64,000 bases of DNA. Source: Candidatus Poribacteria bacterium (lineage in GTDB: Bacteria > Poribacteria > WGA-4E > WGA-3G). This document shows positions 23,431-37,828 of this stretch, piece by piece. The position numbers were made by a program, and so were the translations under genes. Within the stretch, counting starts at the first letter, position 1, and each line of letters begins with the position of its first letter. The notes beneath the pieces are model-generated. The model had not been told where the DNA came from and did not search any database. It saw only the letters and a list, made by a program, of their open reading frames with translations. Where the stretch lies: positions 3,840,001 to 3,904,000 of the forward strand of contig OZ243938.1 in NCBI GenBank assembly GCA_965214095.1, written 5' to 3'.

Positions 23431-25035
23431 ATGAATGACAACAGAAAACCTAATATTGTTCTCATCCTAAACGATGATATGGGATTTTCAGATTTAGGGT
23501 GCTATGGTGGTGAAGTCAATACACCGAATTTGGATCGGCTCGCGGCAGGTGGACTTCGGTGGACGCAATTTTACAATACCGCACGATGCTGTCCGTCACG
23601 GGCATCAATGCTTACCGGTCTCCATCCACATCAAACCGGTGTAGGACACATGATGAGTGATGATGGATTAGAAGGGTATCGTGGAGACCTGAATGATCGT
23701 TGCATCACGATTGCGGATGCTGTCCGATCCGAAGGCTATGGCACGTATATGAGTGGAAAATGGCATATTTCCAGACATACTGGTCCAGATGGTCCTAAAC
23801 ATAGTTGGCCCTGCCAGCGGGGTTTTGATGAATATTACGGTATAATTACAGGGGCTGCTAACTTTTGGAAACCGAACACATTGACGCGGAATAATACGCG
23901 TCTTGATAGTGATGACCTGCCAGAAGGATATTTTTTTACAGATGCTGTAAGTGATGAAGCAGTGAATTTTATTCAGAATCACCATAATAAGAAAGGTGAT
24001 AGTCCGTTTTTCACTTATGTTGCCTACACCGCACCGCATTGGCCGCTACATGCACACGATGAAGACATAGCGGAATACAATGGAAGGTTTGCAGCAGGTT
24101 GGGATGAACTCCGAGAAGAACGTCTATCACGCATGCGTGAAATGAAGTTACTTGATGAATCATGGGGACTGACTGCTCGCGATCCATCACAACTTCCGTG
24201 GAGTGAAGCACAATATAAGGAATGGAACCAACGTCGGATGGAGGTCTATGCAGCACAGATAACACGCATGGATGCTGGTATAGGACGAATCATTGATTCA
24301 CTTGAAGAAACGGGACAATTAGAGAATACCCTTATCCTGTTTTTAGCAGATAACGGTGGGTGTGCCGAGGAACTCGGTGGTCCACCTGCAGTGCGTGATA
24401 GAGATACACATATTAGCACACAGTTGACCTCAGATGGAAAACCTGTTTATCGTGGTAACGATCCGAGTATTATGCCAGGACCCGAAACCACCTATCAGAG
24501 TTATGGTGTGCCGTGGGCAAATCTATCAAATACTCCGTTCCGTCTTTATAAACACTGGGTGCACGAAGGGGGAATTGCAACGCCATTGATAGCACATTGG
24601 CCAGATGCAATCAATTCGGCAGGTGAACTCCGTCATCAACCAGGGCAGCTTCCAGACATCATGGCAACTTGTCTTGAGGTATCTGGTGCTTCATATCCTG
24701 AAGAACATGAAGGCAACCCTATTTTACCTTTAGAAGGGACAAGTTTAGTTCCAATTTTTGATGATAAAGATAACGGTAAAGAAATCCTATTTTGGGAACA
24801 CGAAGGTAACTGTGCTATTCGTCAAGGGGATATGAAGCTTGTCTGTAGATTCCCTGGTGATTGGGAATTGTACGATCTCCAAGCGGAACGAACGGAAATC
24901 AACAATATCGCCGACAAGCATTCGGAAAAGGTGAAAGAATTAGATGGTTTGTACCAAGACTGGACGAACCGCTGCTTTATATACCCTTGGGATAAACTTC
25001 AGGAACACCGTAGACAACGTAGACAGAATAGATGA
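23431..25035 (+). CDS. Arylsulfatase (Cys-type, cytoplasmic)
   Basis: PNIVLILNDDMG, CCPSRASMLTG, GKWH. Confidence 0.92.
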   Translation: MNDNRKPNIVLILNDDMGFSDLGCYGGEVNTPNLDRLAAGGLRWTQFYNTARCCPSRASMLTGLHPHQTGVGHMMSDDGLEGYRGDLNDRCITIADAVRSEGYGTYMSGKWHISRHTGPDGPKHSWPCQRGFDEYYGIITGAANFWKPNTLTRNNTRLDSDDLPEGYFFTDAVSDEAVNFIQNHHNKKGDSPFFTYVAYTAPHWPLHAHDEDIAEYNGRFAAGWDELREERLSRMREMKLLDESWGLTARDPSQLPWSEAQYKEWNQRRMEVYAAQITRMDAGIGRIIDSLEETGQLENTLILFLADNGGCAEELGGPPAVRDRDTHISTQLTSDGKPVYRGNDPSIMPGPETTYQSYGVPWANLSNTPFRLYKHWVHEGGIATPLIAHWPDAINSAGELRHQPGQLPDIMATCLEVSGASYPEEHEGNPILPLEGTSLVPIFDDKDNGKEILFWEHEGNCAIRQGDMKLVCRFPGDWELYDLQAERTEINNIADKHSEKVKELDGLYQDWTNRCFIYPWDKLQEHRRQRRQNR

Positions 25036-26861: not shown

Positions 26862-28466
26862 CTAAATAAGCTTTACATGAAGGGAGTTCTCATCACTCTC
26901 TTTATAGCCAATCCGTATTGCTTTTGTGCGTATGGTGGTTTCACCTTTTGGTAAACGTAGTGGTTCTGTATACAGTATCCAATGTACATCCTCTCCCTGT
27001 TCCATAGTATAAGCGATTGATGCACCCTGTGTGGAACAGTGAAGTTGTAATAGCATTGGTGCTTCCCATTCTCCATTCTCCACAGCTGGTTGTCTGCCTG
27101 GATTTGAGGTGTTTATTGGGATGAAAATTGGGGACGCTGTTTGTGGTTGTTCTCCATTTGGATACCACTTCGCTTTCATCTGTTCTTCGGAAATATCTCC
27201 CATATCTCCGAATGTGGATTGCCATTCTGCTAATGTATTCCGCATCCGTTCAAGCACATCTGCATGTGAGGCATCCTCTGCTAAGTTGCTGAGTTCAAAT
27301 TTATCGTTTTCAACATCGTAGAGTTCCTCTGCGGGTCGGGGGTATTGGAACATGGTCAATTGATCACCCTCTAATTTGTCTTCAGCATAAAGTCGCCACA
27401 TTTCCTGCATCACAGGATGTCGGTTGCGGTAAGGAATCCAGAGGAGATAAGGTTTTTCTGGATAGTAATTTCTAATATATTTATATTTTTTATCGCGCAC
27501 AGCACGTATCATGTCATAAGATTCATCATATCTGTCGCGAGTTGCGAAGATGTAATCACGTTCAACTTTCTGTGGTCCGAGGAAGGGTTGTCCCTGTATG
27601 TGCTGCGGCACTTGTACACCACACAACGATAATACAGTGGGTCCAAGGTCAATTAAACTGACTAATTGATCACTTTCGCTGTTTGGTGTAATTTCCTCGT
27701 GCCAACGTACGATGAGTGGTATCCGTATTCCTGCGTCATAGGGCCACCGTTTACCACGTGGGAGTCCTTCTCCGTGGTCACTCCAGATAAAGACGATAGT
27801 GTTTTCAGCGAGTCCATCTTCCTCCAATTGGTCTAACAGTTCACCGACACGTGCATCTGAAGTAGCGAGATTATCGTATTGTCGTGCTAATGCTTCGCGT
27901 GCTTTCGGTGTATCTGGTAAATATGGAGGTAACTCCACATCATCAGGATTAGTGGTTATTGGTCTGTCGTCTCTGTCCCACATTCCGCTTTCGTGTGTGA
28001 CAGTGGGATTGAAAACTGAAAAGAAAGGTTGTCCTTCCTCACGATTTCGCCAGTGACCTTGGTTGCTGTTGTCATCCCAAGCAGTGATAGGTGGGGTGAA
28101 CTGATAGTCTGTTTTGTTGTTGTTTGTGCAGTAGTAACCAGCAGCTCGTAGATATTCAGTAAAGGTCTTAACATAGTGAGGAAGCACTGCAGAATAGGGG
28201 GTTGGCATGTTCGGTGTATTGCGGTTGGTATGTCCTGTCCGCATGTGGTGTGTGCCTATAGAGGTTTGATACATGCCTGTGATAATAGCGGAACGACTCG
28301 GTGCACAGACACCAGCTGTTGAAAACGCGTTTGGAAACCGACATCCGCTGGCAGCGAGTCGGTCGATGTTTGGTGTACGTGCGATTGGGTCACCATAGCA
28401 ACCGAACCGTGGTGTTGTGTCTTCTAAAGATATCCAAAGAATGTTAGGACGATCTGATATGTTCAT
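26862..28466 (-). CDS. Sulfatase with C-terminal FN3-associated/CHB_HEX_C-like domain
   Basis: CAPSRSAIITG; C-terminal STQGASIAYT...YTEPL...KAIRIGYKES. Confidence 0.9.
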   Translation of the reverse strand: MNISDRPNILWISLEDTTPRFGCYGDPIARTPNIDRLAASGCRFPNAFSTAGVCAPSRSAIITGMYQTSIGTHHMRTGHTNRNTPNMPTPYSAVLPHYVKTFTEYLRAAGYYCTNNNKTDYQFTPPITAWDDNSNQGHWRNREEGQPFFSVFNPTVTHESGMWDRDDRPITTNPDDVELPPYLPDTPKAREALARQYDNLATSDARVGELLDQLEEDGLAENTIVFIWSDHGEGLPRGKRWPYDAGIRIPLIVRWHEEITPNSESDQLVSLIDLGPTVLSLCGVQVPQHIQGQPFLGPQKVERDYIFATRDRYDESYDMIRAVRDKKYKYIRNYYPEKPYLLWIPYRNRHPVMQEMWRLYAEDKLEGDQLTMFQYPRPAEELYDVENDKFELSNLAEDASHADVLERMRNTLAEWQSTFGDMGDISEEQMKAKWYPNGEQPQTASPIFIPINTSNPGRQPAVENGEWEAPMLLQLHCSTQGASIAYTMEQGEDVHWILYTEPLRLPKGETTIRTKAIRIGYKESDENSLHVKLI

Positions 28467-28571: not shown

Positions 28572-29885
28572 TCAAGAATCCTCAGACATAACACAACGAA
28601 ACCCTATGCTATAGCACGTATATCTTGGTGTATTCCGAGAACGGTAAGCAACCCGTACATTCTGAGGTGTACTCACACAGGATCCTCCTCGCAATATCCG
28701 AGAAGACTTGATTTCCGTATAATTATTCACAGTACCATTTATACTTTCTCCTGAAATTGGGTTGTTCTCTGGTGAACGCGCGTAGAAATTTCTATCCCAT
28801 TTATCAAGACACCATTCATATACATTTCCCACTACATCATACAAGCCGTAGCCATTTGCAGGATATTGACCTACAGCTGTTGTCTTACCAATCCAAGCAT
28901 CATAGTTCACATAAGTGGTATCTATTGTGTCTCCCCACGGATATTTTTCTCCAGTGAGTCCTCCGCGTGCAGCCTTTTCCCATTCCGCCTCTGTTGGGAG
29001 TCTCTTACCTACCCAACGCGCATAAGCCATCGCAGCATACCAACTCACCCAAGTGACCGGATGGTCTTCCTCTCCTCTCGGAAAAATCCCAAAATTCCAA
29101 TTCTTCAAGTACTCACCATCGTGATATTTCCGTGGAATGCTTTCTATACCGCTTTTTCCCATTTCATACCATTTTGCTGGTTTGCACCATTCTGGATTAG
29201 CATCAACAAATTCCTTATATTGTGCGTTCGTCACAGGATATTTGTCAATATAGTAACCATCTAAATAGACAGAATGTACAGGTTTCTCATCGCTATATGC
29301 AATTATCTCTTCACTTCCCATTTGAAAACTACCAGATTGGATAAGTAGCATCCCTTCCTTTTCTGTCGGTGTCGGTATAGAGAGTTCTTCATGTTCAGAA
29401 GGAACAGTAAGCGTCTGTTCAGGAACTTCTTCTGTTTGATCTGATACAAATTCTATTGGTGATGTCTCATTACCTTGTAGAGAAGCAATATATAACTGTC
29501 GCTTTTCTGTATCTATGAGAACGTCACGCGCTTGATTTAAGAGTGTACGCCATTGTCCTTCTGTTCTACCATCAGCACGGGGACGACCACCCGCCTGCAA
29601 AGAAGCACTATACAATCTTTTATGTCCAGCCTCAACAAGATTCTGGATTTCTGCTTCATCTATGCTTCGGAACGCATCAGTAGAAAATCCTAATACATCA
29701 AAAAAACTTATATCTTCACCAACAACCAAACCGAGAGACACAAATATCTCTGTAGCCTCATCAACAGATAGACCATAGTTTTGCACTGCTTGGCGTATGA
29801 GACCCTTACGTTGATCGTTAGATATAGTTGGAGAAGCATCTCTCAGCGCACTAATTATTGTAATGAAGTCATCACGGTTTGCCAT
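28572..29885 (-). CDS. J-domain-like (HPD-less) protein fused to an FGE-sulfatase/SUMF1 domain, paralogue 4
   Basis: N-terminal FFDVLG...GGRPRADG...WRTLLNQARDVLID; C-terminal FQMGS, RLPTEAEWEKAARGG, GNVYEW, RGGS, GFRCV. Confidence 0.85.
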   Translation of the reverse strand: MANRDDFITIISALRDASPTISNDQRKGLIRQAVQNYGLSVDEATEIFVSLGLVVGEDISFFDVLGFSTDAFRSIDEAEIQNLVEAGHKRLYSASLQAGGRPRADGRTEGQWRTLLNQARDVLIDTEKRQLYIASLQGNETSPIEFVSDQTEEVPEQTLTVPSEHEELSIPTPTEKEGMLLIQSGSFQMGSEEIIAYSDEKPVHSVYLDGYYIDKYPVTNAQYKEFVDANPEWCKPAKWYEMGKSGIESIPRKYHDGEYLKNWNFGIFPRGEEDHPVTWVSWYAAMAYARWVGKRLPTEAEWEKAARGGLTGEKYPWGDTIDTTYVNYDAWIGKTTAVGQYPANGYGLYDVVGNVYEWCLDKWDRNFYARSPENNPISGESINGTVNNYTEIKSSRILRGGSCVSTPQNVRVAYRSRNTPRYTCYSIGFRCVMSEDS

Positions 29886-29897
29886 ACAATTATACCG

Positions 29898-31301
29898 TTA
29901 GAAATGATGCATAGGATTATCAGGTGCATCACGATCACGATTCAGGTCCCATAAACGTACATTCTTGTCCGTACTACCACTTGCAAGAATTTGTCCGTCA
30001 GGCGAATATGCAAGGGATTTTATTGTGGACTTATGTCCAGTGAGTGTAGAAAAAAATACATTTCTGGTAGTGTTCCAAAGACGTATCAAACCATAATAAC
30101 TACCACATGCAAGTGTTGAACCATTGGGTGAAAAAGATAAAGAATTAAACCAAGAGAGGTGTCCTGCCATAAAGTTCTGTCGTCCACCAGTTGCAGCATC
30201 CCACATAAAAATATTACCATTTAGGGTTGTGCTTGCAATAGTATTGCCATCAGGTGAATAAACCACTAAATGTACACTATTTTTGTGACCACTCAATGTG
30301 AATTTTTTGTAAAACATAACTACATCCCAAACACGAACAGTCCTATCATAACTACCACTTGCAATTGTCCTACCATCAGGTGAAAAGACGAGAGAACTTA
30401 CCCAATTGCTGTGGTCTTTGAGAATATATATTAGTTCACCTGTATTGGCTTCCCACAAGCGTACCGTTCTATCGTGACTACCACTCGCGAGTGTCTTGCC
30501 ATCAGGTGAATAGACGATTGAACTTACTGCCCCGTAATGGCCAGTGAGAGTATTTTTGAGTTCACCTGTGTCAGAATCCCATAAACGAACTGTCTTATCA
30601 TGGCTACCACTTGCAATTGTCTTACCATCGGGAGAATAAATGACCGAAGTTACTTCGTCTTGATGTCCAATAAATGTCCATTTCAGTGTTCCACTGAGTA
30701 CATTCCAGACCTTTGCTGTGCTATCTGAACTACCACTGACGAGTGTAGCACTATCCGGGGAAAATACAACAGAATTGACGGATCCTTTATGTTCTGAGAA
30801 AACTGTATCTTCTATTTTAATTTGCGGTTTTGTAATTGCATTTCTTGAAGATATAGGAACACTTTCAGGTGTATCATCGGTATTCTGGATATTTAGTTCC
30901 TCGGTGTATTCTTGCCGCCGTTGTGGGTTTGTAAGTATATCTCTTGCTTGATTTAAGACCGTACGCCATTCTGCTTCTGACTTTCCATCAGCACGAGGAC
31001 GACCACCTGCTTGCAGCGATTCAGCATATAATTTTTTATGTGCTGCTTCTACACGAGAGATAATATCAACTTTCGATAGGTTATCAATCGCAGACATTGA
31101 TAAACCCAACACCTCAAAATAGTTGATCTCCTCTCCTATTATTAATCCTGATGCATCTAAAATCTCAACCGCCTCATCAACCGAAACGTTGTACTGTTGA
31201 ACCGCCCGACGGAGTAAACCTTTACGTTGTTCATCCGATATTGTCGGAGAAATCAATTTCAACTCATTTATGAACGTAATATACTCGTCGCGTTTTGACA
31301 T
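29898..31301 (-). CDS. J-domain-like (HPD-less) protein fused to a WD40 propeller, paralogue 3
   Basis: Same N-terminal module; seven GH...SPDG..ASGS.D.TVRLWD-type repeats. Confidence 0.88.
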   Translation of the reverse strand: MSKRDEYITFINELKLISPTISDEQRKGLLRRAVQQYNVSVDEAVEILDASGLIIGEEINYFEVLGLSMSAIDNLSKVDIISRVEAAHKKLYAESLQAGGRPRADGKSEAEWRTVLNQARDILTNPQRRQEYTEELNIQNTDDTPESVPISSRNAITKPQIKIEDTVFSEHKGSVNSVVFSPDSATLVSGSSDSTAKVWNVLSGTLKWTFIGHQDEVTSVIYSPDGKTIASGSHDKTVRLWDSDTGELKNTLTGHYGAVSSIVYSPDGKTLASGSHDRTVRLWEANTGELIYILKDHSNWVSSLVFSPDGRTIASGSYDRTVRVWDVVMFYKKFTLSGHKNSVHLVVYSPDGNTIASTTLNGNIFMWDAATGGRQNFMAGHLSWFNSLSFSPNGSTLACGSYYGLIRLWNTTRNVFFSTLTGHKSTIKSLAYSPDGQILASGSTDKNVRLWDLNRDRDAPDNPMHHF

Positions 31302-31488: not shown

Positions 31489-32778
31489 TTAGGATTGACT
31501 CGGCATAACACAACGAAACCCGACATAACTCTTCGTTCTCCATGGAGCTAAAGTGCGACGAATTGAAACTCGTACATCTTGTTCTTCAGAATTCCATGAA
31601 CCACCTCTGATCACTCGATATTTCTTAGATGTCAAATAGGCATCCAAAATCTCTTCTATACTGCCACCTGAAACAGGATTGTCTTTTTCCGATAACTTGT
31701 AGAATTTGCTATTCCATTCATCAAGACACCATTCACTTACGTTGCCTATAATATCAAACACACCGTATCCGTTTGCAGGATAGTTACCTACGGGTGTCGT
31801 TTCTCCAACCCGATTATCATAGTTTGCGTATTCTCTAGAAATTGCATTGCCCCAAGGAAACTTGTATTCAACTAATCCCCCACGTGCTGCCTTCTCCCAT
31901 TCTGCTTCAGTCGGTAGGCGTTTACCAACCCATTTTGCATACGCCATCGCAGCATGCCAACTTACCCAATTCACTGGATGGTTCTCTTTCCCACTGGGAT
32001 ACTTCCCTTTAAACCAGTCCTTCAAATAATCACTATCCCGATACTTTCTTAAAATAAATTGAAAGTTATACATCCCAAGATTATTCCATTGTGGATTAGC
32101 ATCTACAAATTCCCTATACTGTTCATTTGTCACAGGATATTTATCTATGTAGAATCCATCAACATATACTGCATGTGCAGGTTTTTCGTTTGCATGTGAA
32201 TCATATTCGTCACTCCCCATTTGGAATTCGCCAGCCGGTATAAAGACCATCCCATCATTTTCTAAAGGTACAGAACTAACATCACTTTTGGGTGTATTGG
32301 TAGCAGACTCTTCATGTGCTAATTCTTCTGCATCTAAAACTATTTCCTGTGTTGGTGATACACTGTTTTCAAGCCTGTTGATATACGCATTACGTTTTTC
32401 AACATCCATTAGAATATCACGCGCTTGATTCAGAAGTGTTCTCCACTGCTCTTCACTTTGACCATCAGCACGAGGACGACCACCTGCTTTCAACGATTCA
32501 GCATATAATTTTTTATGTGCTGCTTCTACACGAGAGATAATATCAACTTCCGATCGGTCATCAAACTCAGAGATTGTTAAACCCAACACCTCAAAATAAT
32601 CAACTTGTTCACCGATAACCAACCCAGATTCGTTCAGTATATCAACCGCCTCATTAACTGAAACGTTATACTGTTGAACCGCTCTACGGAGAAGTTCTTT
32701 TCGTTGTCCATCAGAAATTGTAGGAAAAATTGATCTTATCTCATTTATGAATGAAATATACTCATCTCGTTTAGACAT
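31489..32778 (-). CDS. J-domain-like (HPD-less) protein fused to an FGE-sulfatase domain, paralogue 2
   Basis: DYFEVLG...GGRPRADG...LLNQARDILMDVEKRNAY; FGE-domain motifs. Confidence 0.85.
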   Translation of the reverse strand: MSKRDEYISFINEIRSIFPTISDGQRKELLRRAVQQYNVSVNEAVDILNESGLVIGEQVDYFEVLGLTISEFDDRSEVDIISRVEAAHKKLYAESLKAGGRPRADGQSEEQWRTLLNQARDILMDVEKRNAYINRLENSVSPTQEIVLDAEELAHEESATNTPKSDVSSVPLENDGMVFIPAGEFQMGSDEYDSHANEKPAHAVYVDGFYIDKYPVTNEQYREFVDANPQWNNLGMYNFQFILRKYRDSDYLKDWFKGKYPSGKENHPVNWVSWHAAMAYAKWVGKRLPTEAEWEKAARGGLVEYKFPWGNAISREYANYDNRVGETTPVGNYPANGYGVFDIIGNVSEWCLDEWNSKFYKLSEKDNPVSGGSIEEILDAYLTSKKYRVIRGGSWNSEEQDVRVSIRRTLAPWRTKSYVGFRCVMPSQS

Positions 32779-32790
32779 TTTATGCTCATT

Positions 32791-34053
32791 TTAGGAATTG
32801 GTAGTATTTGATTGGATTCCAGCAGGGTGTCTCTCTGCACCGTGTCCAGATAGCACAGACCAAACACAACGAAATCCTATTACATTCAGCGAAAAGGAAG
32901 GTGACTCTGCATTACGATTCGCAATTCTTACTAAAGATGCAGGTATCCGCCAAGAACCACCACGCAGGACGCGGTTTGTTTCAACATCTAAAAAATGGTT
33001 CTCAACCCACTCAATCGAATTCGCACCAACGATCGGGTTGCGAGGCGATGACCCCATAGCGAAACCATCATGATACGCATCAAGACACCATTCCCATACA
33101 TTCCCACACATATCATATAAATCATACCTATTCGGAGGATATTGCCTAACAGGAGTAGTTTCACCGATGTTCCAGTCATAATTTGCCATTGATGGATCTG
33201 CATCATCACCCCACGTGTACTTATTCCCACTGACACCACCGCGTGCTGCTTTTTCCCATTCTGCCTCTGTAGGAAGTCGTTTGCCAATCCATTGAGCATA
33301 AGCCATCGCGGCATACCAACTCACATTGACAACTGGGTGTTCGGCTTGAGAATCACGAAAACTGTTCGCTTTCCAATGCTTTAGATAGTCAACATCACTA
33401 TATTCATGAGGAATGTTATGCCGGTTCCATTCTGGGTTTTCATCCACAAATGCCTTATACTGTGAGTTTGTCACAGGATATTTATCAATATAAAACGCAT
33501 CCAGATAAACGGAGTGGATAGGATGTTCATCACCATAAGCTTCGTCATCAGCACTGCCCATTTGGAATTCACCTGCAGGAATCAGTGCCATGTTGTCAAG
33601 TTTCGGAGTCCTCAACGTCTTCTCAATACTTACCGTCTCTTGTTGTATGCTTGACAGATGTCCCAATCTTCTTTTAGGGTCTATTAAAGAATCACGGGCT
33701 TGATTCAAGAGTGTCCGCCACTGCTCCTCTGTCTTGCCATCAGCACGGGGACGACCACCTGCTTTCAACGATTCAGCATATAACGTCCTATGTGCTGCTT
33801 CAACACGATGAACAATCTCTACTTCGCTGAGGTTTTCAAGTTCTGAGATTGACAAACCCAATACCTGAAAATAATCAACCTGCTCACCGACCTGTATTCC
33901 TGATGAATTGAGGATGTCTATGGCTTCATCAACAGTGAGTCCATATTCCTGAACACCTAACCGAACAAAACCTTTACGTTGTTCATCTGTTATTGTCGGT
34001 GAAGCTGTTCTGAGCGCGCTGATAAACGTAATATATTCTTCGCGCTTGGACAT
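32791..34053 (-). CDS. J-domain-like (HPD-less) protein fused to an FGE-sulfatase domain, paralogue 1
   Basis: DYFQVLG...GGRPRADG...LLNQARDSLIDPKRR; FGE-domain motifs. Confidence 0.85.
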   Translation of the reverse strand: MSKREEYITFISALRTASPTITDEQRKGFVRLGVQEYGLTVDEAIDILNSSGIQVGEQVDYFQVLGLSISELENLSEVEIVHRVEAAHRTLYAESLKAGGRPRADGKTEEQWRTLLNQARDSLIDPKRRLGHLSSIQQETVSIEKTLRTPKLDNMALIPAGEFQMGSADDEAYGDEHPIHSVYLDAFYIDKYPVTNSQYKAFVDENPEWNRHNIPHEYSDVDYLKHWKANSFRDSQAEHPVVNVSWYAAMAYAQWIGKRLPTEAEWEKAARGGVSGNKYTWGDDADPSMANYDWNIGETTPVRQYPPNRYDLYDMCGNVWEWCLDAYHDGFAMGSSPRNPIVGANSIEWVENHFLDVETNRVLRGGSWRIPASLVRIANRNAESPSFSLNVIGFRCVWSVLSGHGAERHPAGIQSNTTNS

Positions 34054-34154: not shown

Positions 34155-35750
34155 CTATTCAACAACAAGATCCTGAAGTTCTGTTTTAGCCTGTGCAACC
34201 TCATCTTCATTGAGCGTAGGTCGTTCAATAATAGAGAAAAGATCGTAAACAGCAGTCGCCTCATCATTTGAGAGAGATTTAGCGGTCACCTCAAGATTCT
34301 GGTCTAAGTTGTATTTATAGTTCACCTCAATCGGTGCCCCTTGTGGCAAACCGAGGGGTAGTTCCAGTGTACATTCACCCAATTTGTATTCATCAAACAG
34401 ATCAATATCATCCTTACGTTGGTCCTGCTCAAGTCCTTGCACCACTTCAATTAACACGGATGGTTGATTGTGGTCCACCGTCAAGAACTTATCCGCTACT
34501 TCACACGGAATTGCTGTCATTTTCGGTATCATCACATGAATAACATACTCACGCAGTGCATTAAGAACAATAAGACCAAGATTATGTGTTGCACCATCAG
34601 TAACCGTTACTTTCGGAACACCATCAGGACCGATGAAACGGTCTATAACTGCCTCGGGCATATCTACCGTCTCTGTATCTCCCTCCGTAATCTGACGGAG
34701 AGTCCCCTGAATCGCTGCACCGAGAGCCACGACTTCATCAGGATTGACTTCATGCGGATTGATCTCTTTCCCACTAAGTGTAGCTATCATCTCTTGTATC
34801 ATCGGCATCCGTGTTGAACCACCTACCAATAGGATTTTATCAATATCTTCCCACGACATATCTGCTTCAGAAAGGACAACATTGCACAGCACACGACATT
34901 TTTCAAGCAAGTCCGAGGTGAGTTGTTCAAACTTCTCACGTGTCAACTCAACACGTGTTGTTTTGCCATTGTAACCACATACGATCAATGCTCTCTGTCT
35001 TAACGACAAAGATTCTTTCGCAGTAATCGCATCCAATTGAAGGTCTTGATATGAGTGAAGGTCAACTAATGGATTCTCACCGTGTTCTATCTCAAACATC
35101 TCTGCGACATGCATGATGATTTTATCGTCCCAATCTTTTCCACCCAAACGATGGTCACCATTTGTCGCAAGCATCTGTATCTCCGACTCAGATACACTCA
35201 TGATCGTCACATCAAACGTGCCACCGCCAAGGTCAAACACAAATACATTCTGATTGCTTCCCAATTGGTCCATCCCATAAGCAAGTGCAGCAGCAGTCGG
35301 TTCATTGAGTACCTGCAAGACATTCAATCCTGCAATTCTACCAGCGTTTCGTGTTGCTTCGCGTTCAGCATCGTGAAAATAAGCGGGGACAGTAACAACA
35401 GCATCCGTTATCTCTTCACCCAGATAAGTTTCCGCATCCTGCTTGAGTTTCGTGAGAATAACCGCAGAGAGTTCTTCGGGGGAATAGTCCTTCTCATCAA
35501 ACGTGCGAAAGAATTCCGACTTGGATTTACCCATCTCGCGCTTAATAAATTCAACAATCTGTTCTGGTACTGCCCGTGCATTTTGCTTCGCTATCTTCCC
35601 AACCGTTACAAGATTGTCTTCAAACATTACAACCGAAGGTGTAATACGTTCACTCTCTAAGTTCGGTATTATCTCCGCTTGTCCATGTTCATTCACATGT
35701 GCAATCACTGAAAATGTCGTCCCAAGGTCAATTCCAACGACTTTACCCAT
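34155..35750 (-). CDS. Specialised Hsp70 (DnaK paralogue lacking most of the helical lid)
   Basis: GIDLGTTFS, TVPAYF, NEPTAAALAYG, VFDLGGGTFDV, LLVGGSTRMP, NPDEVVALGAA; about 530 aa; ATG overlaps the grpE-like stop. Confidence 0.92.
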   Translation of the reverse strand: MGKVVGIDLGTTFSVIAHVNEHGQAEIIPNLESERITPSVVMFEDNLVTVGKIAKQNARAVPEQIVEFIKREMGKSKSEFFRTFDEKDYSPEELSAVILTKLKQDAETYLGEEITDAVVTVPAYFHDAEREATRNAGRIAGLNVLQVLNEPTAAALAYGMDQLGSNQNVFVFDLGGGTFDVTIMSVSESEIQMLATNGDHRLGGKDWDDKIIMHVAEMFEIEHGENPLVDLHSYQDLQLDAITAKESLSLRQRALIVCGYNGKTTRVELTREKFEQLTSDLLEKCRVLCNVVLSEADMSWEDIDKILLVGGSTRMPMIQEMIATLSGKEINPHEVNPDEVVALGAAIQGTLRQITEGDTETVDMPEAVIDRFIGPDGVPKVTVTDGATHNLGLIVLNALREYVIHVMIPKMTAIPCEVADKFLTVDHNQPSVLIEVVQGLEQDQRKDDIDLFDEYKLGECTLELPLGLPQGAPIEVNYKYNLDQNLEVTAKSLSNDEATAVYDLFSIIERPTLNEDEVAQAKTELQDLVVE

Positions 35751-36444
35751 TCGTATTGTCCCCTTTCTCACCAGAAGTAGATTTACTTACAATTTCTTCA
35801 CTGTTTTCTGTTGAATCGGAATAACGATAAATTGTCACCTCTTCCGGACGAAATACCTTGTCACGCCAATTGAACCCTATTTTATGTACTTCAGCAATTG
35901 TCTTGTCCTGCTTAGGATCATCTGTTGATATTGTTTGGCGAGTCTTATGCAGTTGCCGATCAAGCGTCCTTGTGGACTCCGCATAAGGTGTTACATCCAA
36001 ACGGTACAATACCTCTTCCAATTTATATCGGAAATTCTCAAGATTGTTCCGATATTGTGTTAAACCATCAGAGATAACTCCATCTTCCGCCTCAAGTATG
36101 ACATCAAGTTGAGATTCAAGCAACAGATAACTGTCGTAAAGTTGAATCAGATTGTGGATAATCGGTTTGTGAAGTACTTCCAGAAGGAAACTCTCTTTAT
36201 AGTCCTTCATCTCCGCATAAATCTTGTCAAACATCTCTGTCTGATTCTGATTGCGAGCAATCTGCTTCTCAAATAATTCTTGTAACGCAGCCAAACTTTG
36301 TTGGATTACTGATAACTCACTATGAGACGACATTTCAGGATTGTCTTCTGATGGAAAGGTATCCACTGCTACATCAAATTCCATTTCAGCCTCATCACTG
36401 TTCTCTTCTAAATGTGCATCATTTTCATTTTTTTTCTTATCCAT
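35743..36444 (-). CDS. grpE: GrpE-like nucleotide exchange factor
   Basis: Acidic N-terminus, long helix, C-terminal LDRQLHK...IAEVHKIGFNWRDKVFRPEEVTIY GrpE head; coupled to hsp70. Confidence 0.8.
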   Translation of the reverse strand: MDKKKNENDAHLEENSDEAEMEFDVAVDTFPSEDNPEMSSHSELSVIQQSLAALQELFEKQIARNQNQTEMFDKIYAEMKDYKESFLLEVLHKPIIHNLIQLYDSYLLLESQLDVILEAEDGVISDGLTQYRNNLENFRYKLEEVLYRLDVTPYAESTRTLDRQLHKTRQTISTDDPKQDKTIAEVHKIGFNWRDKVFRPEEVTIYRYSDSTENSEEIVSKSTSGEKGDNTNG

Positions 36445-36535
36445 ATTTTTCGCATACCTCCCCAATTATAGAGACACCTGAGACCCAAAAGGATAGCAAT
36501 AAATACCAGTGGACTGACAAAGATATTAATTATTT

Positions 36536-37828
36536 TTACCCCTTCTGCCACGGCACACTTCCCGCTCTCTGAGTCTCCTCCTGAAACAGATTTCTCATCT
36601 CATTATACATTTTTTTATCCGATTGAGAAATATCTGTTGTCTCTAAAGGATCGTTGGATAGGTCATAAAGTTCCAACGGTTCAAATGGACGGTTATGCAG
36701 CAACTTTATATCACCTCGACGAACTGCATGCTGACACTGACCACTAAACTGTTGTCCACCTTCCCTACGTATCCAATATAAGAGACGATCAGACAAATCC
36801 TGTTTTTCTCCCTGAAATGTTCCCCAAATCGAATGACCATCAATTTCATGTTGAACAGGCACATCTGCAACTTCACATAGTGTCGGTAACAAATCACTCA
36901 ACATAGCAACCTGATCCGACACATGTCCTTCCGGCATATTTTCTTGCCACATAGCACAAGTCGGTACGCGTATTCCCCCTTCATACATCTCACCTTTCTG
37001 ACCACGCAACGGACCGTTGTGTGCACCAACATTCATCTGTCCTCCATTATCCGACGAATAGATGACAAGTGTGTTTGACAACTGATTAGTCTCCTCAAGT
37101 GTGTCAAGCACTCGTCCGATACCGGCATCCATGTGTTCAACAAGGGCAACATACTTCGCACGTTGATCAGAAATATCTGGTTCACGTTTCTTCACGCGTT
37201 CTATCCAATCGTCTGGGGGTTGAATTGGTGTGTGCGGTGCATTGTACGCGAGATATAAGAAAAATGGATGGGAAGTATGTGCATGCGTTCGAATAAAATC
37301 AACACTCCAATCAGAAAACAGATCTGTCGCATGCCCTCTCGGATCAATAGTACCATAATCGTCCCGCATATAGTTGTTGTTATGCCGAAGGTGTGTATAA
37401 TAGTCATCCATCATATCACCAAGGAAACCATGAAAATGGTCAAACCCGCGTTTACAAGGATGGTTCTCATCTTCAAGACCCAAATGCCACTTCCCGATAA
37501 GTGCCGTACGATAGTCTTTCTGCTTCAACATTGAAGGTAACGTAATCGCATCCTGACGAAAGTAACCCCAATTGTTCTGTGCATGTGTGCGAACCACTCC
37601 CGGAACACCAACCCTATCGGGATAACGTCCTGTCATCAGCGAAGCACGACTCGGAGAACACACTGAACAATTCGCATAAAAATTCGTAAAACGCACACCT
37701 TCATTCGCAATTCTGTCTATATTCGGTGTTTGTATTGATGGTCCATCATGTGCAGAAATATCACCATAACCGTGATCATCTGCAAGAATCAGTAATATGT
37801 TCGGTTGTTTTGCCATAGTATTCTCCAA
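36536..37828 (-). CDS. Sulfatase (arylsulfatase/GalNAc-6-sulfatase-like)
   Basis: PNILLILADDHGYGD, CSPSRASLMTG, GKWHLG. Confidence 0.9.
   Translation of the reverse strand: MENTMAKQPNILLILADDHGYGDISAHDGPSIQTPNIDRIANEGVRFTNFYANCSVCSPSRASLMTGRYPDRVGVPGVVRTHAQNNWGYFRQDAITLPSMLKQKDYRTALIGKWHLGLEDENHPCKRGFDHFHGFLGDMMDDYYTHLRHNNNYMRDDYGTIDPRGHATDLFSDWSVDFIRTHAHTSHPFFLYLAYNAPHTPIQPPDDWIERVKKREPDISDQRAKYVALVEHMDAGIGRVLDTLEETNQLSNTLVIYSSDNGGQMNVGAHNGPLRGQKGEMYEGGIRVPTCAMWQENMPEGHVSDQVAMLSDLLPTLCEVADVPVQHEIDGHSIWGTFQGEKQDLSDRLLYWIRREGGQQFSGQCQHAVRRGDIKLLHNRPFEPLELYDLSNDPLETTDISQSDKKMYNEMRNLFQEETQRAGSVPWQKG

Follow-up and report, generated by a model that had tools for sequence, protein, structure and literature searches.

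Operon organization and a Gln at the DnaK R167 position

We analyzed a 64,000-nucleotide stretch of DNA, hereafter the window, from a Candidatus Poribacteria bacterium (contig OZ243938.1, positions 3,840,001 to 3,904,000 of the forward strand) and found in it an operon of six genes, all on the minus strand, which encode a GrpE-like nucleotide-exchange factor, then a short Hsp70 paralog, then four proteins with degenerate J domains, here called adaptors (Table 1). The Hsp70 has Gln in place of the Arg found at position 167 of E. coli DnaK, and all four adaptors lack the HPD motif with which J proteins engage this Arg, suggesting a dedicated Hsp70 machine that may have given up the canonical HPD-R167 trigger.

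The Gln had been proposed in an initial annotation made from the sequence alone, and both the codon and the alignment confirmed it. The CAG codon (35315-35313 on the minus strand) is in frame within the open reading frame (ORF) 34155-35771, the minus strand around it reading GCA GGA TTG AAT GTC TTG CAG GTA CTC AAT GAA CCG ACT. It specifies residue 153 of the 538-residue ORF product (GTG start). Numbering from the ATG at 35748-35750, the likely start (531 residues) and the one at which relatives begin, makes it residue 146. The surrounding peptide, AGLNVLQVLNEPTAAA, is encoded by 35286-35333 (minus strand) and overlaps the span initially annotated, 35296-35335. In a MAFFT alignment with E. coli K-12 DnaK, this Gln fell in the R167 column, and the flanking landmarks matched: six catalytic or allosteric residues of the actin-like ATPase domain (K70, P143, D148, R151, E171 and T199, DnaK numbering), as well as D393 and D481, were identical in the two proteins. 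Two solved DnaKs have Arg in this column. Having Gln there, the window protein is not of the canonical DnaK type, though D393 and D481 are present.

The protein is clearly a member of the Hsp70 family (PF00012), and it scored below the cut-offs of the equivalog models for both DnaK (best NCBIfam model 432 bits, cut-off 648) and HscA (336 bits, cut-off 708.55). The C-terminal helical lid (the alpha part of the substrate-binding domain) is missing: the Pfam match stops at 509/599, and no residue occupied the DnaK 526 column. The closest relatives are similarly short, 521-547 residues. Other differences from E. coli DnaK include a 25-35 residue insertion ahead of the interdomain linker (protein residues about 360-385), a VTVTD linker versus VLLLD in DnaK, and a 19-residue deletion in lobe IB.

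In E. coli, D35 of the DnaJ HPD motif bonds with DnaK R167 and Q378, H33 bonds with the carbonyl of L391, P34 packs on P419, and K48 pairs with D477, while R167 otherwise pairs with D393 and D481 (Tomiczek 2020; Mayer 2021; statements from cited papers, here and below, follow excerpts of them). The corresponding positions of the window Hsp70 read Q167, Q378, V391, P419, K477, D393 and D481. As judged from the alignment, its J-domain interface is changed at several points, both Asp partners of the missing Arg being kept.

Table 1. Features of the operon and their positions in the window
Feature	Position	Strand	Evidence or detail
GrpE-like nucleotide-exchange factor, 240 residues, first gene of the operon	35743..36465	-	Pfam GrpE, E 9.8e-11, 42 bits (cut-off 25.8)
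Short Hsp70 paralog without helical lid	34155..35771	-	Pfam HSP70, E 1.9e-123, profile 1-509 of 599
CAG codon for Gln in the E. coli DnaK R167 column	35313..35315	-	Strand reading and DnaK alignment
Adaptor 1: N-terminal 3-helix domain + J-like domain (module 33619-34053) + FGE-sulfatase-like domain	32791..34053	-	GGRPRADG 33736-33759
Adaptor 2: same module + FGE-sulfatase-like domain	31489..32778	-	GGRPRADG 32461-32484
Adaptor 3: same module + 7-repeat WD40 propeller	29898..31301	-	GGRPRADG 30984-31007
Adaptor 4: same module + FGE-sulfatase-like domain	28572..29885	-	GGRPRADG 29568-29591

The J-like module and its loop

Each adaptor opens with a 145-residue module, those of the other three being 57-59% identical to that of adaptor 1. 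The module is composed of a small N-terminal 3-helix domain and a J-domain homolog, in which a rebuilt loop, longer by about two residues, connects helices II and III. Homology with J domains was detected with hhalign: a profile of 33 diverse modules matched four true J domains with a probability of 93.9% (E 1.6e-7), module residues 58-134 aligning with DnaJ residues 3-68. An AlphaFold2 model of the module (pLDDT 86.6) showed the helix II-loop-helix III hairpin of the J fold, with helices 77-97 and 109-124 on either side of loop 98-108. J domains were also the top rows of a Foldseek search with this model (E 0.15-2), in which no match reached E <= 0.001, and a sequence profile search of solved structures returned Jac1 alone (E 0.8). 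Since these two matches are weak, the assignment rests on hhalign. A search of the ESM Atlas with the module was uninformative (best score 0.79). None of the four window proteins reached the gathering score of Pfam DnaJ (PF00226) or gave a hit to it at E <= 0.01; weak hits were obtained for 10 of the 33 diverse modules (best E 0.013), and one of the 33 weakly matched Pfam Pam16 (E 0.021).

The HPD motif is absent from the helix II-III loop of all four window modules, which therefore have the fold of a J domain and not its motif. Residues 99-106 of all four read GGRPRADG. The initial annotation had described this octapeptide as an invariant replacement of HPD, which was true of the window; beyond it, the exact motif was present in only 51 of 191 J-like ORFs of related loci. 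Fourteen residues were invariant in the 33 diverse modules (H88, Y92, S95, L96, G99, R103, D105, G106, W112, R113, L116, N117, L123 and R129), of which only four, G99, R103, D105 and G106, lie in the octapeptide. Position 101 may be Arg, Leu or Val, position 102 Pro, Ile or Val, and position 104 any residue. A second module subtype, also poribacterial and accompanied by its own GrpE and Hsp70, has the J-like part only and a loop of the form Y-A-N-V-P-R-x-D-G, so that the two subtypes share no more than the loop core P-R-x-D-G. Among the matches to the J-like profile, an HPD in the loop was seen only in the last and weakest one (P0252).

Three alignments of the loop with HPD were considered. 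In the hhalign alignment, A98-G99-G100 fall on H-P-D and R-A-D-G on Q-G-D-K of true J domains, and the second subtype aligned equivalently, with ANV on HPD. Two weak sequence-to-profile alignments (Jac1 and P0252) placed R-P-R on H-P-D, and by eye R-A-D could also match H-P-D. Whichever of the three is chosen, the His is absent, and on this comparison the HPD motif as such is gone.

The N-terminal 3-helix domain (module residues 1-56, for example 33886-34053 of the window) is mobile; it may precede or follow the J-like domain and is in some cases present in two copies (for example, L064:10430-11908 and P0150, P0163 and P0171).

GrpE-like protein and adaptor domains

The GrpE-like protein belongs to the GrpE family by its Pfam score (PF01025; 40.2 bits in the genome scan) and fell under the cut-off of every NCBIfam GrpE equivalog. 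Pfam identified an FGE-sulfatase-like domain behind the J-like module in three of the adaptors and seven WD40 repeats in the other. FGE here denotes formylglycine-generating enzyme, whose domain has a lectin fold, and the similarity was strong (Pfam E 8e-67 for a window adaptor). The two cysteines of Streptomyces FGE (2q17/6muj), which we take to be the catalytic pair, aligned to Ile and to a gap in the window adaptor. The domain is thus present without the Cys pair that would make it a formylglycine-generating enzyme. A Cys-pair pattern was matched by none of the 26 FGE-sulfatase-like ORFs of the genome, and the idea that these adaptors are active FGEs was rejected for this reason. The genome also contains 29 ORFs with a Cys-type sulfatase signature.

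Position 167 in related Hsp70s

The Gln was not an isolated substitution. Among the 120 closest proteins in a collection of 5.8 billion, column 167 was occupied by Gln in 116 and by His in 2, the remaining 2 lying outside the residue pattern used; in 31 related loci, whose orthologs are 79-98% identical, 28 had Gln and 3 had His. Because of this fixation in relatives, the Gln is not a chance occurrence. Gln, and once His, was also seen in Hsp70s of lower identity (61-77%), among them those encoded next to the second module subtype. Outside this group, we compared DnaK, HscA and HscC of E. coli, the DnaK of the host genome and nine poribacterial paralogs (eight Hsp70-vWA proteins and one other), and all 13 had Arg.

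Ala occupied this column in a still more distant paralog (46% identical), whose gene lies next to a GrpE-like gene and a J-like match that is very weak and has no HPD. In its locus (L081, G029:C32, 8117-16643), the GrpE-like gene is followed by the Ala-167 Hsp70, in which D393 is changed to R and D481 to E, by the gene with the very weak J-like match (E 0.0017) and by a 768-residue Hsp70 with Arg. A second Hsp70 paralog (about 49% identical), with Arg-167 and with N or S at D481, was present upstream of the GrpE-like gene in some loci (L064:5126-7219, L072:5000-7084, L076:10628-12895, L080:11240-13441, L092:8747-10564, L093:8129-10222, L094:2428-4515 and L095:10710-12842); its fusion with a vWA domain was seen in the L064 copy, the one on which Pfam was run.

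Phylogenetic analysis of 68 distinct sequences by a quick maximum-likelihood search, made after removal of one identical duplicate and of partial ORFs with fewer than 450 aligned residues, placed all 55 non-Arg Hsp70s (50 with Gln, 4 with His and 1 with Ala) in a single clade (SH-aLRT 98). This clade formed an unresolved three-way fork with the vWA-fused clade and one other Arg-containing paralog. A single change is sufficient to explain the distribution of Arg on the tree, and the four His cases arose in two events. The loss of Arg therefore offers no independent replicates of covariation with the loop. Within the family, loop position 101 was Arg in 104 modules, Leu in 39 and Gln in 1 beside Gln-type Hsp70s, and Arg in all 10 beside His-type ones; these counts do not track the Gln/His difference and so give no covariation signal either. 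In addition, the Hsp70s of three loci whose modules have shortened loops without P-R-x-D-G (L079, L080 and L090) keep Gln, and in a fourth such system (L094) the fused NBD protein has Lys. Covariation at position 167, for which the initial annotation proposed a test, was thus not borne out: a single loss of Arg suffices, and the same loops occur beside Gln and His.

Distribution and co-inheritance

A scan of one genome per species identified 37 loci, 35 of them in genomes titled Poribacteria and 2 titled "uncultured bacterium"; the scan was of limited reach because its search patterns were specific to the N-terminus of the module. Only 132 proteins were found at E <= 0.001 in a profile search of 1.84 billion representatives, and canonical J domains were therefore not drawn in. 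The set is an accessory module seen to date in Poribacteria only. Adaptors occur in arrays of 1-10, that is, up to about ten paralogs, and across the family the C-terminal domains include FGE-sulfatase-like, WD40, ankyrin (in proteins of up to 1884 residues), HEAT, TPR, and PEGA with peptidoglycan-binding domains.

The two gene families were inherited together. When the hit tables of 176 Poribacteria genomes were compared by hand, J-like profile hits were present in 63 and the Hsp70 in 62, with 61 genomes having both. The two genomes with J-like hits only had E values of only about 1e-4, and in the one with the Hsp70 only, the gene is at a contig end. Of 39 further genomes from the same genus, 6 had neither family, two of these 6 being single-contig assemblies. 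In every complete locus examined the Hsp70 and J-like genes were adjacent, and no canonical J domain was found among 2898 ORFs of 67 loci, the four weak hits (E >= 0.003) being the J-like genes themselves.

The host genome (5.25 Mb, 94% complete), that of a sponge symbiont, has a separate housekeeping set: one DnaK with Arg at the column, a second, ordinary GrpE whose gene adjoins dnaJ, and four matches to the J domain, three of which exceed the Pfam cut-off and all of which have HPD. It also contains 11 J-like genes, four in the window and seven about 70 kb away, the latter in tandem on the plus strand about 40 kb past the right end of the window (G000:C1:3943590-3953813). Because no second Gln-type Hsp70 was found in the genome, the one in the window presumably serves all 11 adaptors.

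Two types of fusion were also detected. One protein (P0166) consists of an Hsp70 nucleotide-binding domain (NBD) with Gln at column 167 fused straight to a whole J-like module. In another ORF (L094:4328-6310), an NBD with Lys at this column is apparently joined to the N-terminal 3-helix domain and a GrpE-like tail, without a substrate-binding domain. The separate housekeeping set, the co-occurrence, the lack of canonical J domains in the loci and the NBD-J-like fusions support a private machine of Hsp70, exchange factor and adaptors, which would be gained and lost as a unit.

Contigs from two metatranscriptome runs of one study, about 93-95% identical to the window, cover the Hsp70, GrpE and adaptor genes; they derive from a relative, may reflect DNA carry-over, are uninformative where coverage is missing, and were given no weight. 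In one genome (G097), a type-1 Hsp70 copy (C2:1401420-1402928) is broken by TGA and TAA stops, and an intact system of the second subtype is present on the same contig (C2:902143-911994).

Predicted docking of the loop

We modeled the complex of the Hsp70, with its full alignment, ATP and Mg, and the J-like part of the module (residues 57-145, the N-terminal domain being omitted). In three runs the ipSAE of the model was 0.70, compared with 0.17 for the highest-scoring of 3 controls. Of 80 solved complexes, 58 attained the ipSAE mark, as did 2 of 110 mismatched pairs; these counts hold only approximately here because we used our own alignments and small molecules (ATP and Mg). The runs agreed on at least 95% of contacts, and the pLDDT of the partner was at least 83.

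Confident contacts involved module residues 96-102, 104 and 113 and Hsp70 residues 63, 66-68, 79-82, 205, 209, 212-213, 216, 226, 228, 231 and 234. The latter correspond to DnaK positions 63-68, 81-84 and 230-259, which we place at the top of the nucleotide cleft, in lobes IB and IIB and well away from residue 167. The patch formed there by E67, F68, F80, K205, D209, L228, L231 and Y234 is conserved in the clade and different in DnaK. The Arg, Leu or Val at loop position 101 would fit a hydrophobic plug or contact. The model supports, and does not show, binding of the J-like module to its Hsp70. As the predicted mode differs from that of the solved complex of DnaK with a J domain, the score is not simply a memory of that structure.

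The initial annotation had described the Hsp70 and its neighbors as a co-evolved pair with reciprocal changes on the two sides of one interface. A dedicated gene set was upheld by the adjacency of the genes, the 61 shared genomes, the fusions and a complex model that passed its controls. A reciprocal contact between Q167 and the Arg-rich loop was not: the loop varies while Gln stays, the model docks it on IB/IIB, and the profile alignments put AGG or ANV on HPD.

A proposed dedicated Hsp70 machine without the canonical trigger

Our preferred reading, to which we assign a probability of roughly 0.55, is that these genes encode a second Hsp70 machine of Poribacteria, made up of a GrpE-like protein, a lidless Hsp70 and an array of degenerate-J adaptors, in which the HPD-R167 trigger was given up on both sides and the J-like domain docks elsewhere. 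The data support a dedicated pair without the canonical trigger. A single ancestral event would have done away, on both sides, with the capture of R167 by the HPD Asp, and the J-like domain would have been kept as a docking device for its own Hsp70. In the model, docking would proceed via the tip of the lengthened helix II-III loop, G99-G100-(R/L/V)101-P102, on the clade-specific hydrophobic patch between IB and IIB; Q167 and the Arg-rich motif would then be two marks of one rewiring event and not a compensating contact pair. The adaptors may bring ligands of their lectin-fold or repeat domains to the ATP-driven Hsp70, and the kinds of domain found suggest a sensor- or conflict-type function, not one in general protein folding. 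Because the trigger appears to have been abandoned on both sides, the set is probably orthogonal to DnaK/DnaJ, and the insulation from this pair suggested in the initial annotation is plausible.

Several observations weigh against this reading. The docking site comes from one structure-prediction job, and the residues that it does not name are simply uncertain. The IB/IIB patch is common to the Hsp70-vWA paralog, which keeps R167, and hence is not specific to the Gln-type Hsp70. Invariant R103 and D105 are outside the confident contacts, though they may shape the loop, and the members with short loops (L079, L080, L090 and L094) cannot dock exactly as modeled. The tree was obtained by a quick search and has long outgroup branches. 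With regard to range, the genome-level search covered Poribacteria, and the 132 family representatives carry no taxonomy. Finally, the Gln-type Hsp70 may simply be J-independent, because DnaK that has lost R167 shows a higher basal ATPase activity and is no longer stimulated by J proteins (Tomiczek 2020).

The last point leads to the alternative that survives best, which we nevertheless regard as doubtful: the Hsp70 would be uncoupled from J proteins and have a higher basal ATPase activity, the unused interface would have decayed under relaxed selection, and the J-like relic would serve as a scaffold, tether or client. In both DnaK and Ssq1, changes of R167 or its Asp partners raise basal activity and prevent J stimulation (Tomiczek 2020), HPD is held to be essential for stimulation (Mayer 2021; Malinverni 2023), with HPD substitutions being disabling (Mayer 2021), and the loss of the loop motif in some members and the existence of NBD fusions without a substrate-binding domain are also consistent with decay. 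However, the J-like helices and loop core are strongly conserved over more than 170 paralogs, with the 14 residues mentioned above invariant in 33 modules, the Gln is fixed and not drifting, and a specific interface was modeled well above controls.

A further proposal, rather unlikely in our estimate, gives the repurposed J domain a more active part. Without HPD, it would have stopped firing ATP hydrolysis via R167; its loop would plug the clade-specific IB/IIB groove, the exchange-factor face, and gate nucleotide exchange or cleft closure with or against the private GrpE. The machine might then be the ATP-driven core of an immune-like (conflict) system of sponge symbionts, with the diversified lectin-fold, WD40 and ankyrin adaptors as sensors, and an Hsp70 counterpart of MoxR-vWA ternary systems.

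It is unlikely that the canonical trigger has instead been re-keyed, with an Arg-containing loop facing residue 167 from the canonical site so that the R-to-Q and HPD-to-GGRPRADG changes compensate each other. Both changes are fixed and always occur together. A precedent exists in DnaK R167H, which suppresses DnaJ D35N (Tomiczek 2020), and His is natural in 4 of the 55 clade members. The two weak alignments (Jac1, E 0.8; P0252) put R-P-R on H-P-D, and with D393 and D481 kept, a loop Arg could in principle stand in for R167. Against this, the single origin leaves no replicates, the loop varies or is absent while Gln stays, and the choice between Gln and His is independent of the loop. Moreover, the better-supported profile-profile alignments place AGG or ANV on HPD, the complex model sets the loop on lobes IB/IIB, and other canonical contacts have changed as well (D477 to K and L391 to V).

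A role in sulfatase maturation, with the J-like-FGE fusions acting as formylglycine-generating enzymes and the Hsp70 holding unfolded sulfatases, is very improbable: sulfatase genes do flank the operon (23431-25035 on the plus strand, 26862-28466 and 36536-37828 on the minus strand), sulfatases with the Cys-type signature are numerous in the genome and the FGE-sulfatase-like domain is present on 10 of its 11 J-like ORFs, but the required cysteines are missing, WD40, ankyrin, HEAT, TPR or PEGA domains occupy the same position in paralogs, and the surroundings of the locus differ in other genomes.

HPD and the Arg that it captures have been treated as near-universal and essential for J control of Hsp70. 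The poribacterial system, although natural, conserved and duplicated many times over, has neither of the two, and it still possesses the ATPase core, the Asp residues of the linker and of the substrate-binding domain, and an exchange factor of its own. It could be used to test how much of the Hsp70 allosteric switch can be dispensed with, is a candidate orthogonal Hsp70/co-chaperone pair, and places the lectin-fold (FGS) proteins and eukaryote-like repeat proteins typical of sponge symbionts in a new context.

Comparison with known systems

In the literature searched, which did not extend to supplementary files, we found neither an Hsp70-GrpE set whose J adaptors lack HPD nor a natural Hsp70 clade without Arg167 described. 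A survey of about 280,000 J proteins dropped sequences without a full HPD from its curated dataset (Malinverni 2023).

The DnaK-DnaJ-GrpE system of E. coli resembles the poribacterial set in combining the three families in one operon-like set, with intact Hsp70 core residues, a GrpE-family factor and a J fold. It differs in that the poribacterial Hsp70 has Gln for R167 and Lys for D477, no lid, an insertion before a VTVTD linker and a deletion in IB, that a longer P-R-x-D-G loop replaces HPD, and that the partners, encoded in arrays of 1-10, carry fused lectin-fold or repeat domains. HscC with DjlB and DjlC, and HscA with HscB, are likewise second, non-housekeeping Hsp70s beside their own private J proteins, and DjlB and DjlC also depart from HPD, having HPE. 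Unlike the poribacterial Hsp70, HscA and HscC have retained R167, and the third residue of the motif is still acidic in their partners. These two also work without GrpE (Mayer 2021), whereas the poribacterial set includes a GrpE-like gene. The R167H/D35N suppressor pair concerns the same Hsp70 position, which is naturally His in 4 clade members whose partners lack HPD; it is a laboratory pair with one change per side and a proven contact (Tomiczek 2020), whereas here the whole loop has been rebuilt and a contact with residue 167 is not supported.

A J fold without HPD is presumably also found in mitochondrial Pam16/Tim16. We take Pam16 to regulate a true J protein, Pam18, without a correspondingly altered Hsp70, whereas in the poribacterial loci there is no HPD-containing partner and the Hsp70 is altered.

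The search for links with defense and conflict systems gave several negative results. No AAA+ or vWA domain was found by Pfam in the six operon proteins (MoxR elsewhere in the genome was not searched), so that they do not form a MoxR-vWA ternary conflict system as defined by Kaur et al. 2020. PADLOC gave no match for the Hsp70, the GrpE, an FGE-type adaptor, an Hsp70-vWA protein or a caspase-PEGA-FGE protein, and matched the WD40 adaptor to a repeat model only. No match to reverse transcriptase (RVT_1) was found in the 94%-complete genome, and hence no diversity-generating retroelement. In two loci, the gene upstream of grpE encodes a protein with caspase-like, PEGA and FGE-sulfatase-like domains (L066:5290-7125 and L070:13375-15282).

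The HSP70-GrpE-DnaJ context that Kaur et al. describe is that of GAP1-N2 GTPase systems of actinobacteria and firmicutes. The NTP-dependent ternary conflict and FGS-sensor systems (Kaur et al. 2020, 2021) resemble the poribacterial loci in their variable FGS, repeat and caspase domains, in a component that is fused to vWA at some loci, in having more than one adaptor paralog in a genome and in a patchy, accessory distribution. The core of those systems is MoxR with vWA or a STAND NTPase, whereas here it is an Hsp70 with GrpE.

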